In this document: positions 42,650 through 51,150 of the stretch, one piece after another
Position numbering within the stretch: the first letter of the stretch is position 1
Layout: every line of letters begins with the position of its first letter
Sequence record: NC_100371.1
Strand: one strand, 5' to 3'
Source: a phage
Length of the DNA stretch: 64,000 bases
Notes under the pieces: generated by a model
Databases searched by the model: none
What the model was told of the DNA's origin: nothing
Seen by the model: the letters and a program-made list of their open reading frames with translations, nothing else
Position numbers and translations under genes: made by a program

Positions 42650-43741
42650 TTAGATAAAACGCTTGAACATAGAAGGTGATGAGATTGATGGAATCACACA
42701 AGGCAGCGCTACCTCCTCTTTCTCCAGGAAATTAATCGCAGAAGCTACACAGTCGGCCCAGTCGTCTTTTCTGTTAAATGTTGATCTTTCCCCGTTGAAC
42801 TTTTCAAGTTCAGTCAGAAATGCTTCCAGAGTGTCAGGATGGAAACTGGATTTTACAATCCTCACCATTCCTTGTTGGGCAAGATTGGCAAAAGGTGAGA
42901 ACCTTGTCAGTTTAGATTTGTTGGAAGGCATTGGATCTTCTTCAACCCTGAACCCTTCGGCGAGCAAGGATCTGGACGAGGTTAAGAATTCACTCTTACC
43001 TGCCTGACCGGGGTCCACAGAAAATACGATTATGCAATCATCTCCATCAAACTGCGCCTGTTTCCTGATGATCACATCTCGTTCCCCAGCCTTTTTACAG
43101 AACTTACCTTCCAGACCTGTGGAATACCTACCGTCATCCACGTTCTCAGGACAATAATCTCCGGACAGGTAATAAAAGCCGTCGCTATCTTTACTTACCT
43201 TAACACTGGCGGTAAAGTCAGGAAATTTATTACCGGAAGTTCTCTCGGTTCCTGCTTTATCCCATGCCCTGCAAGATACTGATCCAAGAGGTACTCTATC
43301 GGCATCACGAAGGAAAGATCTTTGGAAATAGTTTGCACCCTCAGGTTTGGCAAACCAGTTGCCATGAAGAAGCTGGGCTTTTTCAAGCTCTGGCAGACCT
43401 TCAAGGAAAGCAAGGTATTCTGGGTTGTCTCTCAAGCAGACAGGGTTATCGAAAATTGTTGCTCCTATAAACGAGAATGACAACGGTCTTGGCTTGATCT
43501 CCACACCCAGTCCGTTAACCGTGGTGTATTTCTCTATTAACTCTTCTTTAGAGTCTCCCCAAATAAATTCACCGTCGCGTCGGATAAAATATCTTTTCTT
43601 ACCACATTTCTCCGGATCTGGATACCCTTCATCGTCCAACCACCACCTGACCAGTTTGGCAAGCATGTGTTCTGAGTCGGGGTTACAACTGATAACCATT
43701 CTTGATGGATACTTTGACTGAGATCGCAGACGAGACATCAA
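42650..43741 (-). CDS. terL: terminase large subunit, exon 2 (C-terminal part; 5' boundary approximate)
   Basis: Begins near SRMVISCNPD (motif III-like) and continues through a nuclease-type region; reading frame is open upstream into the intron, exact 3' splice site not determined. Confidence 0.65.
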   Translation of the reverse strand: MMSRLRSQSKYPSRMVISCNPDSEHMLAKLVRWWLDDEGYPDPEKCGKKRYFIRRDGEFIWGDSKEELIEKYTTVNGLGVEIKPRPLSFSFIGATIFDNPVCLRDNPEYLAFLEGLPELEKAQLLHGNWFAKPEGANYFQRSFLRDADRVPLGSVSCRAWDKAGTERTSGNKFPDFTASVKVSKDSDGFYYLSGDYCPENVDDGRYSTGLEGKFCKKAGERDVIIRKQAQFDGDDCIIVFSVDPGQAGKSEFLTSSRSLLAEGFRVEEDPMPSNKSKLTRFSPFANLAQQGMVRIVKSSFHPDTLEAFLTELEKFNGERSTFNRKDDWADCVASAINFLEKEEVALPCVIPSISSPSMFKRFI

Positions 43742-44654
43742 ATAGTCTATCTGCTCCCATTCGAATTGCGTCGTTTATGTTCGGGCAAGGTCGCTAGTCT
43801 TGCCCCGCCATTTTCAGGCAGCTGCATGTCTCCATGCAGACCAGACTATATCTTATGAATGTGCAAATACTCTGCTGCTCTAAGAATGGTTTCCTCATCC
43901 TCTTGGAAGAAACCTAAAGCTCTGTTGCATTTATCACAAAGCAACCCTCTTACAGCACCAGTTTTATGGTCATGATCAACACAAAAGAAATCTCTGTACC
44001 CTTGCGTCCTATACTCATCAAGAGATATTCTACAAATGGCACACTTATGATCTTGATCTGAGAGTAAGCGATAGTATTCATCTTTTGTTATGTGAAATTT
44101 CTTCTCAATCTGATAAAACTTTTCACACATCTTACACCTGTTCGTAACCAGATACACTTTACCATAGTCACGTTTTGTGTAAAAACTATCAGCAAGCATA
44201 CTTTCATGACAAGATTTACATTCAAAAAGCTCACCTTTCTTCAGTAAGTCTTGAATAAAAGATGCTGCATCATCTCTCTTAACCATATTTTTGTTTCTAC
44301 GAGATCCATTCTTCCTGTAGTACATATAGCATTCCTTGCATGTACCGGAGTATCCATCCTTGCTCTTAGATGATAAAAAGAAATCATCAAGAGGTAGAAC
44401 TCTTTGGCAATCCATACATTTTTTAGTATTACACATTCACCCTCCCGTTTCGAATCGCTTGATTCTACGTCTTTCGACTAGTCGTTGAACGTTCATCCTT
44501 TCGGATGCTTCGCTGCGGATTATCTAAATTAACACACTGTTACCATACCTTCGATCTCTCTTCGAAGCCTCTATCATGTTACCATGACAGGTTGGTGGTG
44601 TCAATAATAAAGATTTCCCCGCAATTAGGGAGGTTTTACGAGAGCTACAAATTA
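43742..44654 (-). mobile_element. group I intron (td-like) in terL, carrying HNH homing endonuclease ORF
   Basis: Minus strand begins UAAUUUGU... right after exon codon GGU (in-frame UAA); contains P-like AAUUGCGGGGAAA, Q-like AAUCCGCAGC, R-like GUUCAACGACUAGUC and S-like AAGAUAUAGUCU in canonical order. Confidence 0.7.
43846..44436 (-). CDS. HNH homing endonuclease (intron-encoded, 196 aa)
   Basis: Own GGGAGGG RBS; several CxxC zinc-finger pairs and HNH/EndoVII-type motif CVDHDHKTGAVRGLLCDKCNRALG; stop codon UAG lies inside the S element. Confidence 0.7.
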   Translation of the reverse strand: MCNTKKCMDCQRVLPLDDFFLSSKSKDGYSGTCKECYMYYRKNGSRRNKNMVKRDDAASFIQDLLKKGELFECKSCHESMLADSFYTKRDYGKVYLVTNRCKMCEKFYQIEKKFHITKDEYYRLLSDQDHKCAICRISLDEYRTQGYRDFFCVDHDHKTGAVRGLLCDKCNRALGFFQEDEETILRAAEYLHIHKI

Positions 44655-45080
44655 ACCCTCATCGAAGCAAACCATGGTGTACTCAAGTCCTTGATGGTTA
44701 AGCTTATCTTGGACATACTCCATGTGGCAGTATTTTACAACAGCTCCTTTTTTGCTCCTGTCCCACTTGCCAGTGCTCGGATCAAACCGTGGAAAAATAA
44801 ACTTATGATCCTTCTCTCTGAACTTTGGTTTAATGTTTTCAGGCAGATCACTGTAAATAGCTACTGCTTTAGGCCATAGCCCACCCTCACCTTCCAACTG
44901 TGGAGTTGTTCTTCGGAACATAACCACAGAGCTGTGTGGGTCATCAATAATTTTAAGCGGCATCAACTGCAGGAGGAACGACTTACCTGACCCAGCCGCA
45001 CCACCAATGACAAGAATGTCTGCATCGTTTTCCAGGATCATCTTCTGCTTTTCAGAACACGGTCCGTAAATCTTAGACAT
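44652..45080 (-). CDS. terL: terminase large subunit, exon 1 (N-terminal ATPase part)
   Basis: Walker A ILVIGGAAGSGKSF and Walker B MVCFDEG; ORF ends at TAA directly after DEG, which I read as the first intron codon. Confidence 0.7.
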   Translation of the reverse strand: MSKIYGPCSEKQKMILENDADILVIGGAAGSGKSFLLQLMPLKIIDDPHSSVVMFRRTTPQLEGEGGLWPKAVAIYSDLPENIKPKFREKDHKFIFPRFDPSTGKWDRSKKGAVVKYCHMEYVQDKLNHQGLEYTMVCFDEG

Positions 45081-46424: not shown

Positions 46425-46430
46425 AAAAGG

Positions 46431-46527
46431 TGCTAGGTGATGGAATCGAACCATCTATGTATTCAACGACTACCTCGTCTATTTTCAGGATTAAAAATCC
46501 TCGCCCTTGCCAAAGGGCTTACCTAGC
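46431..46527 (-). tRNA. atypical tRNA-like gene (97 nt; Lys-like UUUUUAA loop; identity unresolved)
   Basis: Perfect 7-bp acceptor GCUAGGU/ACCUAGC, D-arm GCCC-UUUGGCAA-GGGC, T-arm GAUGG-UUCGAUU-CCAUC, but 46 nt between D- and T-arms; no encoded CCA. Confidence 0.4.
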
Positions 46528-46830: not shown

Positions 46831-46918
46831 TGGTGGTGAGTGATGGAGTCGAACCACCCGAATCGCAATGATAACAGATTTACAGTCTGCCCCGCTACCC
46901 CTACGGAATTAACTCACC
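46831..46918 (-). tRNA. tRNA-Tyr (anticodon GUA), class II
   Basis: Manual fold: acceptor GGUGAGU/ACUCACC, anticodon arm GCAGA-CUGUAAA-UCUGU, long variable arm, T-loop UUCGACU, CCA. Confidence 0.7.
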
Positions 46919-47219: not shown

Positions 47220-47558
47220 TTAACTATTGCCAACAGGCTGTATTTCTGTGGTAAATGGCATAAAAGGTGCTGGTTTTTCAGCCTCTTCCACTACCACCTC
47301 TTCCTCTTCACCAAACATCTCATCATATTCTTCCTGCATTCTGTCTGCCTTATCAAGAACATACTCTGCAATGCTTTGACGAATATTTTGTTTGGTTTTC
47401 GGGTCCAACATCAGCTCTCTTAAAACTTTGTGAGCTTCTGGAACCATCGCTATAAAAGATTCCTTCATATCAAGAATGTTCTTCTCTAGCTGAATGGCGT
47501 TGGACTCCTCTTTCAGAGGTCTGCCTCTACGGCGACGCTTTTTAGTTGTATCCGCCAT
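47220..47558 (-). CDS. hypothetical basic/acidic DNA-binding-like protein (113 aa from internal ATG)
   Basis: Protein starts MADTTKKRRRRGRPLK (AT-hook-like RGRP) and ends with acidic EEEEVVVEEAE; ORF track start at 47678 likely too far upstream. Confidence 0.35.
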   Translation of the reverse strand: MADTTKKRRRRGRPLKEESNAIQLEKNILDMKESFIAMVPEAHKVLRELMLDPKTKQNIRQSIAEYVLDKADRMQEEYDEMFGEEEEVVVEEAEKPAPFMPFTTEIQPVGNS

Positions 47559-47903
47559 GTTTCCTCCATTATCACGTGATAGGTGGATTTTATCACGGCA
47601 AATACTGATTGTCAAGTTCGCCGCAGGGTGGTATTCCCTGCGACTTGCCCAGCGTCCTGGACCAGCAAGACCCAACAAGTGGGTTACCAGATACCCATTA
47701 CCGCGCTCTGGCTCGACCTTATTACAGGTTGGCTGGGGTCACATCGTCATGTGCTGGCTGCCCCTACCATTTTAAGTGTGGTGCACTATCAAGCCCTCTA
47801 AGGGGAACTCAGCCTTCTCCGAACCCTGTTTCAAAGCATCCGGAGATAAAGCCATCAAACTCATCTTTAAATTGGATATTCATCATGATACACGAAAACA
47901 ACC

Positions 47904-48421: not shown

Positions 48422-49000
48422 TCAACGTTCGTAGTAAATCTTATTCAACATTACCTCATCGTTTGCAGAAAGGATATCAAGATATGCATCACCAAATCTG
48501 CCTGCAACAACCTCTGCATGATACATCACTTCGTTAACATCGTCAAGAGTGATAACCGGATGACCATATCTTTCTGAATATTGTCTCAGTGTGCGATGTA
48601 ACGAGTCGTCATCATATGCAGACTTTTTAATATCACAAACACGACGAATGGCCTTGATGTCGAAAAAACCTGTGCGATACCACCCAAGAAAAAAGTTCCG
48701 TGTAGTGTCAACATCTACATCAATACCATTAAGAACCTTATCTACAAGATAGCTGTCATCCTTTGGACTAGCGTCCTTAGTGCGAATGTAGTTGCCATCT
48801 TTTCCAGGTGATAGCTCCTTCTCATCACCAACCTGCATGCCATCATTTGGCGGTGTTAGCCACTTATCAGGATGCTTACGATCACGAGCGTTAGAATGAT
48901 TACGCTGGAAACCTGGCTTCCACTTGAAAGTTTTCTCCATCTGTTCTTCATTCTGATAACGTTTTGCAATCTTTTCACTGGCATCTTTGCGTGAACTCAT
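48422..49000 (-). CDS. hypothetical protein (192 aa)
   Basis: ORF with start overlapping upstream ORF stop; no motif recognised. Confidence 0.35.
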   Translation of the reverse strand: MSSRKDASEKIAKRYQNEEQMEKTFKWKPGFQRNHSNARDRKHPDKWLTPPNDGMQVGDEKELSPGKDGNYIRTKDASPKDDSYLVDKVLNGIDVDVDTTRNFFLGWYRTGFFDIKAIRRVCDIKKSAYDDDSLHRTLRQYSERYGHPVITLDDVNEVMYHAEVVAGRFGDAYLDILSANDEVMLNKIYYER

Positions 49001-49140
49001 AGCAGACTCCTCTTCAAGTTATAGAAAAACTCACTGTATCGCTTTGTAACGAGCTTTTCTATCAAACTGGTGCGATTGCCTTACTTGGTATAGTTTATAT
49101 AGCTGTGGAGCGATTTAGGGGCCTTCTTGTCAGTTTCCAC

Positions 49141-49375
49141 ACATAAACTTTATCCGAACTCGCGCGGGAGGCTCTCAACCGACTCCTTCCGGCGCTGGCA
49201 AGCTTTCGTCGGTGGTCCACATTAGTGCTCGGCCTTTGGCCTGCGCTATCGCTTCGCTCCCACACATGTTAACAGTCCTGCATGTATGCACTTCTGTTAT
49301 TGTGTGCACTATGGAGGCCCGGCATCTCGCCCCTCGTAGGCGAGTGCCAATGAAGGGCCGACACTACCCATAATA
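49141..49375. other. GC-rich hairpin-dense island in intergenic region
   Basis: Composition shift versus AT-rich flanks; multiple local dyads (CCGAC...GUCGG, GGCC-UUU-GGCC, CUCGCC-CCUCGUA-GGCGAG); no ORF of 60 aa or more. Confidence 0.3.
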
Positions 49376-49505
49376 AGTAATAAATTTAAAACATGGTACT
49401 TAGGATCTAGTATATTCTACATAAGTTAAGTATATGTACTTTAGTACCATAAGTACTAGATCTTTTATTTTTTATTATTTAGTTATTTTAGTTATATTCT
49501 TTATG

Positions 49506-49587
49506 TGTCCGTATCACGGACAGTTAGTGTCCGTATTACGGGCAGATGTGTCCGCGTGACGGACAGTAGTGTCCGTATCACGGACAG
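49506..49587. repeat. four tandem 21-22 bp iteron/operator-like repeats with internal dyad symmetry
   Basis: TGTCCGTATCACGGACAG at 49506 and 49570 (identical), variants at 49528 (TGTCCGTATTACGGGCAG) and 49549 (TGTCCGCGTGACGGACAG); period 22/21/21 bp; AT-rich tract with inverted repeat AGATCTAGTA at 49402-49462 just upstream. Confidence 0.6.
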
Positions 49588-49661
49588 TTACTAACCTCTG
49601 TTCCAGAGTGAACATAAAACATACAAATCCTTATAGTACAGATGTTTAAGTTTTTACTGGT

Positions 49662-50012
49662 CTAACCAGTTGTTGACATTCGAATAACTTCTTCTGGTGG
49701 CAAAACTTTGGAAAATGTGCATCTTTTACCTCTCCCTTGTGTGGATATTTCAACCACTCCTGCACATTCTAAAGTTTTAACGCACGCTGCTGCTTTTGTT
49801 TTCTTTATCCCAACATCTGCTGCAATTTTCCTGGTGCTGGGTGTGAAGCGTGAATTTTCTCCAAGCTTATACCAGTTGTGCAGGTAGCAGTATACGATCT
49901 TGTCATATAAGTCAAGAACAATAACCTCCCCAGTTGTGCCATTCAAAACTTTTGACATAGACAGTATTTCAAGGGGGACTTTAAGATATAGCAGCTTATC
50001 CCCATCTTTCAT
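49662..50012 (-). CDS. helix-turn-helix DNA-binding protein (116 aa)
   Basis: Segment FTPSTRKIAADVGIKKTKAAACVKTLECAGVV resembles a winged-helix/HTH; adjacent to the repeat array. Confidence 0.4.
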   Translation of the reverse strand: MKDGDKLLYLKVPLEILSMSKVLNGTTGEVIVLDLYDKIVYCYLHNWYKLGENSRFTPSTRKIAADVGIKKTKAAACVKTLECAGVVEISTQGRGKRCTFSKVLPPEEVIRMSTTG

Positions 50013-50059
50013 ATCTCCTGATTCTCCTTGTGTGGCAATTTTCTTTAAAATAGCAGGGA

Positions 50060-50614
50060 TTACTCCCCGCTGTCAATAGCAAGACTCATTGCAATACGGT
50101 ATGCCTCTTCTAATGGTAAGAGTCTCCCCCACACATCCCAACCGACATCAAACTGCCTGCCAAACAACTGCTGTGTGGTTCCGTGAGCATGACCGAACAG
50201 TTGGACTGATCCGTGAGGCTTTCTGTTCCACTTTGCAAACTGGTAATGGCTCATACAGATCAAATTCTTGTTGTGGCGAAGCTCGTAATAATCTACAACC
50301 TCATGACCGAACTCTTTCATAATTCTGACAGTCGTCCTTGTGTCATGGTTACCACGAACAAGAATAATATGTCCGTTCAACATATTTAGAACATCTGGAA
50401 GCAATTTGTTGATATTCTTATCATTAGTGCACGCAATATCCCCCAAGTGAAACACAGTGTCTGCAGGTGACACAACAGAGTTCCACTTGGTGATGATTCC
50501 CGCATTCATACTGTCAAGATTGTGATCATACTGAGATCTGTGTTTTTGACATGAGTCGAACTCCATTACCCGCTGGTGGAGAAAGTGTGTGTCGCTTGTT
50601 ACAAAGTATTTCAT
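50060..50614 (-). CDS. calcineurin-like metallophosphoesterase (184 aa from ATG at 50614)
   Basis: Motifs SDTHF, GDI, GNHD, GHAHG; start with GAGGAA RBS; ORF-track start at 50719 would overlap the kinase. Confidence 0.6.
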   Translation of the reverse strand: MKYFVTSDTHFLHQRVMEFDSCQKHRSQYDHNLDSMNAGIITKWNSVVSPADTVFHLGDIACTNDKNINKLLPDVLNMLNGHIILVRGNHDTRTTVRIMKEFGHEVVDYYELRHNKNLICMSHYQFAKWNRKPHGSVQLFGHAHGTTQQLFGRQFDVGWDVWGRLLPLEEAYRIAMSLAIDSGE

Positions 50615-51032: not shown

Positions 51033-51150
51033 AGTAACTCTCCGTTTTAATTTTAATGATAGTATACCTAACTGTTTTGTTAATTTCAAGTGTTGACACC
51101 AGGTTATTTGTGTGGCAGAATAAAGGGACAAAATGACAAATGAGGAATGT

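Follow-up and report, generated by a model that had tools for sequence, protein, structure and literature searches.

Replication origins at which an initiator protein binds an array of repeats are well described in phages and plasmids. [quoted passage not shown] In iteron plasmids both the phasing and the number of the iterons matter, and the Rep protein has two winged-helix domains; T-rich repeats have been described for DNA-unwinding elements (PMC10797057). Here we describe a locus of comparable layout in a stretch of phage DNA of 64,000 nucleotides (sequence record NC_100371.1; the whole stretch is referred to as the window), where four dyad-symmetric repeats stand between an AT-rich tract and the gene of a small winged-helix protein. 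The window belongs to the genus Vequintavirus, the rV5-like virulent myoviruses of Escherichia coli, which have genomes of ~137 kb. In the rV5 genome paper an origin was sought and not located, and the skew analysis yielded transcription switches only (PMC3606486). We found no description of the array, or of any origin in the Vequintavirinae, in the searchable literature, and the few GenBank records that mark the array do so merely with an automatic 'repeat_region'.

The window is 99.6% identical to Escherichia phage ECP2303 and 91–99% identical to ~118 other Vequintavirus genomes. For genome-wide scans it was combined with the remaining 72 kb of ECP2303 (~136 kb in all). From our analyses we consider, with about even confidence, that the array, the AT-rich tract and the winged-helix gene constitute a replication-origin module of the lambda/iteron type with a minimal initiator, in which the protein would bind the dyads, the tract would unwind and replication would start at this locus. 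We favour an origin because helically phased, genome-unique sites adjoin the least stable duplex of the genome, and because the neighbouring protein is of the initiator N-terminal type and the layout recurs in two genera with different repeats. The features of the locus, by position in the window, are the following.

49505–49590, no strand: repeat array of four 21–22 bp units, each with the dyad TGTCCG-N5-CGGACA; putative iterons or operators.
49370–49504, no strand: AT-rich tract of 135 bp with 19% GC; putative DNA-unwinding element.
49662–50012, minus strand: winged-helix gene encoding 116 amino acids (rV5 ORF 79, gp075); putative array binder.
50047–50076, minus strand: sigma-70-like promoter TTGACA-18-TATTTT with a TG extension (10/12), upstream of the winged-helix gene.
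49591–49661, no strand: fast-evolving spacer from the array to the stop codon of the winged-helix gene, with a hotspot at 49590–49611.
49100–49369, no strand: conserved non-coding block, GC-rich (~54%), beyond the AT-rich tract.

The array and the AT-rich tract lie inside a gene-free stretch of 661 bp (49001–49661) that is flanked by two minus-strand genes. Read along the minus strand, the promoter (50076–50047) is followed by the winged-helix gene (50012–49662), a 71-bp spacer, the array (49590–49505), the AT-rich tract (49504–49370), the GC-rich block (49369–49100) and a gene at 49000–48422. Transcription has its main change of direction, and the GC skew its minimum, near 51,100, 1.5 kb from the array locus.

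The four units occupy 49505–49526, 49527–49547, 49548–49568 and 49569–49590, with start-to-start distances of 22, 21 and 21 bp, and their dyad cores lie at 49506–49522, 49528–49544, 49549–49565 and 49570–49586. Unit 4 is an exact copy of unit 1; unit 2 shares 82% and unit 3 77% identity with them. These coordinates and identities confirm an earlier note, made from the sequence alone, that had described four units at 22/21/21 spacing with identical outer and diverged middle copies. The arms of 8 bp given in that note were too long: in units 1 and 4 the perfect arms, TGTCCGT/ACGGACA, measure 7 bp and enclose a 3-nt centre, and the core conserved across all units consists of 6 + 6 bp flanking a 5-nt centre. 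Its distance of 75 bp to the end of the winged-helix gene (stop codon 49662–49664) holds when counted from the last dyad core; counted from the end of the last unit it is 71 bp. Tandem Repeats Finder scores the array at 110–126, against 39 or less for all other tandem repeats in the 64 kb. No further copy of TGTCCG-N5-CGGACA was found within the window at up to two mismatches, nor in the remaining 72 kb of ECP2303 at up to one mismatch, and lone half-sites elsewhere occur at chance frequency.

Duplex stability was calculated as nearest-neighbour free energy over the ~136 kb. At window sizes of 60, 100 and 130 bp the least stable duplex of the genome is 49370–49504, clearly so at 100 and 130 bp, and the divergent promoter region near 51,050 is far less unstable. 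The right part of this tract, which touches the array (49459–49504, 46 bp), is 67% T on the plus strand and has four TTATT motifs. It also contains GATCTTTTATTTT at 49459–49471, the sole perfect match in the 64 kb to GATCTnTTnTTTT, which we take to be the consensus of the E. coli oriC 13-mers; as a single site this is a lead only. The left part holds interleaved inverted repeats (49393–49412 / 49443–49462) and two GATC sites. The earlier note had placed an AT-rich inverted repeat beside the array, and one is indeed present, as a 9-nt pair with GATCTAGTA at 49404–49412 and TACTAGATC at 49454–49462; it interleaves with a second pair of 8 nt, ATGGTACT at 49393–49400 and AGTACCAT at 49443–49450. 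Because the order is A-B...A'-B', the two pairs do not form a simple hairpin.

Conservation was assessed in 19 genomes and contigs, including lineages whose winged-helix protein is only 84–88% identical. Among these, 10 distinct unit variants occur. Positions 1–6 and 12–17 of the unit are invariant save for the symmetric positions 3 (T>C) and 15 (A>G), changes that never co-occur in one unit, and the centre positions 7, 8, 10 and 11 are freely variable. The 22/21/21 register is constant across all genomes compared, and copy number changes in whole-unit steps, with two units in YN3, three in FFH2 and A147, four in most genomes and six in O157 typing phage 14. Mean pairwise divergence is 1.9% in the array (49505–49590) and 2.1% in the AT-rich tract (49370–49504), compared with 4–12% in the flanking non-coding DNA (5.3% in the GC-rich block, 49100–49369, and 12.3% in the spacer to the right of the array, 49591–49661). 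As the half-site sequence itself is conserved, and not just its pairing, and as the spacing corresponds to two helical turns, the array would fit sites for a dimeric DNA-binding protein rather than an RNA structure; hairpins are disfavoured since the compensatory changes expected for them are not seen. Separately, three of seven Logan contigs and GenBank record MG065672.1 (A141) end at or within the array or at its junction with the AT-rich tract. Since the exact repeats are short, 22 nt at most, these breaks are probably due to low coverage in the 19% GC tract or to heterogeneity in copy number, and a physical DNA end at the array is conceivable as well.

Over its full length, the product of the winged-helix gene belongs to PHROG 12838, 'replication initiation protein' (6e-78). 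It also matches Pfam DUF6945 (1.4e-6; 28.8 bits, with a gathering threshold of 28) and HTH_36 (1.9e-5; HTH, helix-turn-helix) and, more weakly, the initiator families PHROG 8102 (1.8e-5), 428 and 270 (2e-5 to 1e-2). Judged by these profile matches, the closest relatives that bear a name are DNA-binding domains at the N terminus of phage replication initiators. The family does not extend beyond the genus: 118 phage records are 87–98% identical, and in a set of 1.84 billion representative proteins no other sequence exceeds 34% identity; scans of IMG/VR with the protein and with the exact repeat unit gave no match. One relative has been solved, the uncharacterised protein PDB 4ro3 (2e-5), followed with weak scores by CodY-type winged helices. 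Remote matches in wide protein searches proved to be HTH_36 domains of a generic kind, set in unrelated architectures, and a single spurious immunoglobulin protein; HTH_36 domains also occur in proteins of other kinds, for example GIY-YIG and T5orf172 fusions. An AlphaFold model based on a shallow alignment was too poor to be used (mean predicted local distance difference test score 44). In GenBank the same protein appears as 'putative transcriptional regulator', 'replication initiation protein', 'DsrC like protein' and 'hypothetical protein', and its gene is unannotated in the YN3 record.

The winged-helix gene is placed among nucleotide-metabolism genes behind a sigma-70-type early promoter. 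Its neighbours encode a metallophosphoesterase and a P-loop protein matching AAA_33 and polynucleotide-kinase families. The rV5 equivalent of the promoter is annotated as P76. Transcription from it would cross both the array and the AT-rich tract, and no terminator-like site was found between the winged-helix gene and the array.

Comparison with sister genera, reached through the neighbouring phosphoesterase gene, was the most informative of the analyses and shows the layout to recur independently. Mydovirus, Henunavirus and the Seunaviruses 4MG and GAP31 encode a winged-helix protein of 105–107 amino acids; that of Mydovirus is 33% identical to the window protein over 48 amino acids (E 4e-6) and has the same DUF6945 match. 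Upstream of this gene are two repeats, TCAAWTTGAGCAYAGGCT, at a spacing of 22–23 bp, preceded by an AT-rich tract of ~100 bp that begins with GATCT-T-rich motifs and has the same polarity relative to the repeats as in the window. In Erwinia phage pEp_SNUABM_01 (Henunavirus, 147 kb, 48.7% GC), which has two genome-unique repeats TCAATTTGAGCATAGGC and a winged-helix gene of 107 amino acids, the least stable segment (88,6xx–88,750 at all three window sizes) abuts the repeats. Salmonella phage SSE121 (Seunavirus, 148 kb, 45% GC) has three units with a dyad of the type ATTCCC-N4-GGGAAT, of which one is perfect, one has a single mismatch and one is a degenerate copy in inverted orientation; the two direct copies are 24 bp apart, and its least stable genome segment (139,023–139,152) abuts these dyads. 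Beside them, between gp228 and a divergent intergenic region, lies an unannotated open reading frame (ORF) of 120 amino acids (NC_027351.1, 139,234–139,596, minus strand), which matches PHROG 8453 and has weak HTH_36 and DnaD-like N-terminal similarity. Three genera thus have three unrelated repeat sequences in the same layout of genome-unique phased repeats, least stable tract and a winged-helix gene of 107–120 amino acids. The winged-helix proteins of different genera are 24–27% identical, and the repeat sequences differ likewise. The sister-genus modules sit exactly at the switch of transcription direction.

The sister proteins belong to PHROG 8102 (1e-35), covering only the N-terminal third of its 337-position profile, and also match 'replication initiation O-like' and DnaD-like loader families (1e-7 to 1e-4). 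On account of these matches they look like stand-alone origin-binding N-terminal domains of phage initiators. Alignments of the intergenic sequences between the window and the sister genera scored 34–36 against a shuffle maximum of 29–33, at the edge of chance; our claim is therefore limited to a common architecture and does not extend to homology of non-coding sequence. Tentatively, and at somewhat below even confidence, we propose that the Vequintavirinae (rV5, PVP-SE1-like and Mydo-like phages and the Erwinia relatives) share a previously unrecognised origin module, the initiator of which would be a stand-alone winged helix of 105–120 amino acids, protein and repeats having co-diversified between genera. 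As part of the same tentative proposal, this initiator would correspond to the N-terminal, origin-binding domain of initiators of the O/DnaD type, minus the part that recruits the helicase; its sole task would be to open the adjoining unwinding element for the primase-helicase of the phage.

The rV5-like locus resembles lambdoid origins in its tandem dyad sites of ~18–19 bp, which are spaced by about two turns beside an AT-rich unwinding tract, in a copy number that varies among relatives (four in lambda and six in Stx phages, two to six in rV5-like phages), and in a winged-helix binder (a putative one in the rV5-like phages) that is encoded at the same locus, with transcription crossing the site. 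It differs in that ori-lambda lies inside the O gene, whereas the rV5-like sites are located 71 bp past the stop codon, and in its setting, a 137-kb virulent myovirus with its own primase-helicase and polymerase. With the iteron-type theta replicons (F, P1, pSC101 and RK2) it shares phased sites of 17–22 bp by a T-rich unwinding element (putative here) and an adjacent gene for the (here putative) initiator, and in the sister genera also the order of AT tract, repeats and gene. Those replicons have direct repeats and a monomeric Rep with two winged-helix domains, in contrast to the dyad units and the one winged helix found here. Multi-operator regions, such as repressor sites at phage early promoters, are similar in combining several dyads with an adjacent gene for a dimeric HTH protein; unlike in these, no promoter was detected over the sites in the present genome, which lie downstream of the putative regulator gene and beside the stability minimum.

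If the locus is a replication origin, the following course of events may be envisaged. Host RNA polymerase would transcribe the 116-residue winged-helix gene early from its own sigma-70-type promoter, and dimers of the protein would occupy the four TGTCCG-N5-CGGACA dyads, the half-sites of which are about one helical turn apart. The period of 21–22 bp, or two turns, would place the dimers on one face of the helix, allowing cooperative binding and bending or wrapping of the DNA like that in the lambda O-some. Strain would be released in the adjoining T-rich tract, the site of the genome that is easiest to melt, and the phage's own T7-gp4-like primase-helicase and DNA polymerase, both of which are annotated in relatives, would enter the melted region. 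Read-through transcription from the upstream promoter may aid the opening, as it does in lambda.

Several observations weigh against an origin. Lambda O has ~300 amino acids, and its C-terminal domain recruits P/DnaB, whereas a single winged helix fills most of the 116 amino acids of the rV5-like protein, which has neither such a helicase-recruiting domain, nor the second winged-helix domain of plasmid Rep proteins, nor a match to Pfam Phage_rep_O. The initiator label of PHROG 12838 and PHROG 8102 is itself a putative one, assigned from the winged-helix domain, and the neighbours of the protein in PDB and NCBIfam are transcription factors (CodY, MarR and LexA), albeit with weak E-values. In contrast to iteron plasmids, no DnaA box (TTWTNCACA) was found near the array, the nearest match being more than 5 kb off. 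The sister-genus repeats directly precede the ribosome-binding site of the winged-helix gene, an arrangement that a simple autoregulated promoter would also have. Moreover, promoter regions are AT-rich too, and large virulent myoviruses can initiate replication by transcription- or recombination-dependent routes without an initiator.

The strongest alternative, a serious one that we regard as possible but on the unlikely side, is that the array consists of operators for a winged-helix transcription regulator. Such operators could block early read-through to the downstream minus-strand genes, control an unrecognised promoter in the AT-rich tract, or control a plus-strand promoter-like sequence in the spacer (TGAACA-17-TATAGT at 49609–49637), in which case an RNA antisense to the winged-helix gene would be produced. 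Small winged-helix proteins are usually regulators, in agreement with the CodY-, MarR- and LexA-type neighbours and with the 'putative transcriptional regulator' label of GenBank annotators; the regulator gene ends 71 bp from the array; the sister-genus position between AT tract and ribosome-binding site is classically autoregulatory; and read-through is plausible, as no terminator separates gene and array. The -10 element of the spacer sequence is kept, and is the consensus TATAAT in the divergent Aya lineage. On the other hand, this sequence matches at 9/12, and such matches are no commoner than in shuffled sequence; on the minus strand, the strand that encodes the winged-helix gene, the AT-rich tract has no sigma-70-like match, in a scan confined to promoters of that type. 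The sites also lie away from the gene's own promoter, where neither half-sites nor an autoregulatory site were found. This agrees with the remark in the earlier note that no obvious promoter position coincides with the array. A single locus with four phased sites and a range of two to six copies is unusual for a simple operator, and a promoter does not need a genome-wide stability minimum such as recurs in three genera, the divergent promoter near 51,050 being less extreme. An operator role would be compatible with an origin role, as it is in iteron plasmids. Among the options named in the earlier note, namely origin, partition site and multi-operator region, the origin thus remains the one that we favour, with operators as the less probable choice.

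We consider it improbable that the array is a pac site at which the 116-residue protein, as an unrecognised small terminase, would start headful packaging. Vequintaviruses are reported to package by a headful mechanism and to be circularly permuted (PMC8407724, PMC13211470). The large terminase gene (42650–45080, minus strand) is split around an HNH endonuclease gene, and is a three-part join in rV5; upstream of it we recognised no small terminase gene but two spanin genes, and none is annotated. Small terminases are often small HTH proteins that act on repeated sites, as lambda Nu1 does at cosB, and several assemblies break at the array. The breaks, however, are explained equally well by coverage or copy number, as discussed above. 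The large terminase gene lies 4.4 kb from the winged-helix gene, with the lysis genes and a tRNA cluster in between; the winged-helix gene has an early context, given its sigma-70-type promoter and nucleotide-metabolism neighbours; and its product resembles no terminase family in PHROG or Pfam.

Still less credible are RNA stem-loops that would stabilise, process or terminate the winged-helix mRNA in its 3' untranslated region. Each unit could form a 7-bp hairpin, and the array starts 71 nt past the stop codon on the transcribed strand, but the arm sequence is conserved, the changes at positions 3 and 15 disrupt a pair in one of the two strands and never come with a compensating change, the centres vary while the exact 21–22 bp register is kept, no U-tract or terminator-like site is present, and the sister-genus repeats lie upstream of the gene. 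A partition (centromere-like) site for plasmid-like maintenance is the least probable explanation: centromere-binding proteins do bind arrays of short repeats, and one Vequintavirus genome has been deposited as a circular 137.6-kb E. coli 'plasmid', but the phage is a virulent headful packager, no ParA/ParM-type partner is encoded nearby (the neighbouring P-loop protein being of the AAA_33/polynucleotide-kinase type), and no related sequence or element was found in 5,426 complete RefSeq E. coli genomes.

The deposit in question (PLSDB CP057073.1, 'plasmid pRHB39-C03_2') is a complete circular Vequintavirus genome of 137,565 bp from an E. coli isolate from cattle faeces, and has the same four-unit array. 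It may represent a carrier state or contamination; it also suggests that the proposed origin module might allow a plasmid-like carrier state.

Substitutions in the GC-rich block on the far side of the AT-rich tract fall without codon periodicity (11/13/12), and the ORF annotated there is interrupted in phage naam by an in-frame stop. The intergenic ORFs (ORF 78 of rV5, three BASEL 'hypothetical proteins' and a 41-amino-acid ORF across the array) were accordingly rejected as genes, showing no codon periodicity and, in one genome, an in-frame stop. Folding z-scores of the block are -3.4 on the plus strand and -2.3 on the minus strand relative to shuffled sequence, but an RNA structure is not supported, with 0–1 compensatory pair against 7–10 broken pairs. 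Rfam, at gathering and at permissive thresholds, returned nothing relevant; the match to rli43 at 24.6 bits, with a gathering threshold of 100, is meaningless. In rV5 and A147 the block lacks 18 bp (49283–49300). By analogy with the GC-rich segment of some plasmid origins, it may be part of the origin region.

The gene beyond this block (48422–49000, minus strand) belongs to PHROG 12226, which has no assigned function. Upstream of it, at 49030–49055, the motif CTCACTGTATCGCTTTGTAACGAGCT resembles a sequence that occurs as an inverted pair in the corresponding intergenic region of the phi92-like phage EmilieFrey (score 35, shuffle maximum 33); a promoter or regulatory motif common to these phages may be involved. 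Upstream of a PHROG 3330 gene, at ~47560–47900, there is another GC-rich island, reaching 54% GC. It is probably non-coding also, because the mechanically predicted ORF at 47220–47678 extends beyond the residues (41–151) that match the family. Within the tRNA cluster, ARAGORN predicts a tRNA-like gene of 99 nt with a four-base anticodon (atcc) at 46429–46527 on the minus strand, which reaches 37.5 bits with the Rfam tRNA model and is listed as 'tRNA-OTHER' in GenBank records. A tRNA at 46834–46918, tRNA-Tyr in relatives, was found by Rfam and missed by ARAGORN.

Phased initiator sites beside an unwinding tract are of a well-known kind; what differs here is the setting, a subfamily of large virulent myoviruses, and the apparent reduction of the initiator to a single winged helix. 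The rV5-like phages rank among the E. coli myoviruses isolated most often, and their use in therapy and biocontrol is widely proposed. The candidate locus is precise and cheap to test; it consists of a cluster of sites of 85 bp, a putative unwinding tract of 135 bp and a single small protein. Should the array instead be an operator array, it would mark a point of control that separates the early genes from the tRNA, lysis and late genes. If the locus is the origin, gene 79 and its relatives, now variously labelled, would receive a correct annotation, and the rV5-like phages would gain an engineering handle in the form of origin-based plasmids, replication-defective mutants and copy-number reporters. 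It would also mean that a lambda-style origin works with an initiator stripped to a single winged helix.

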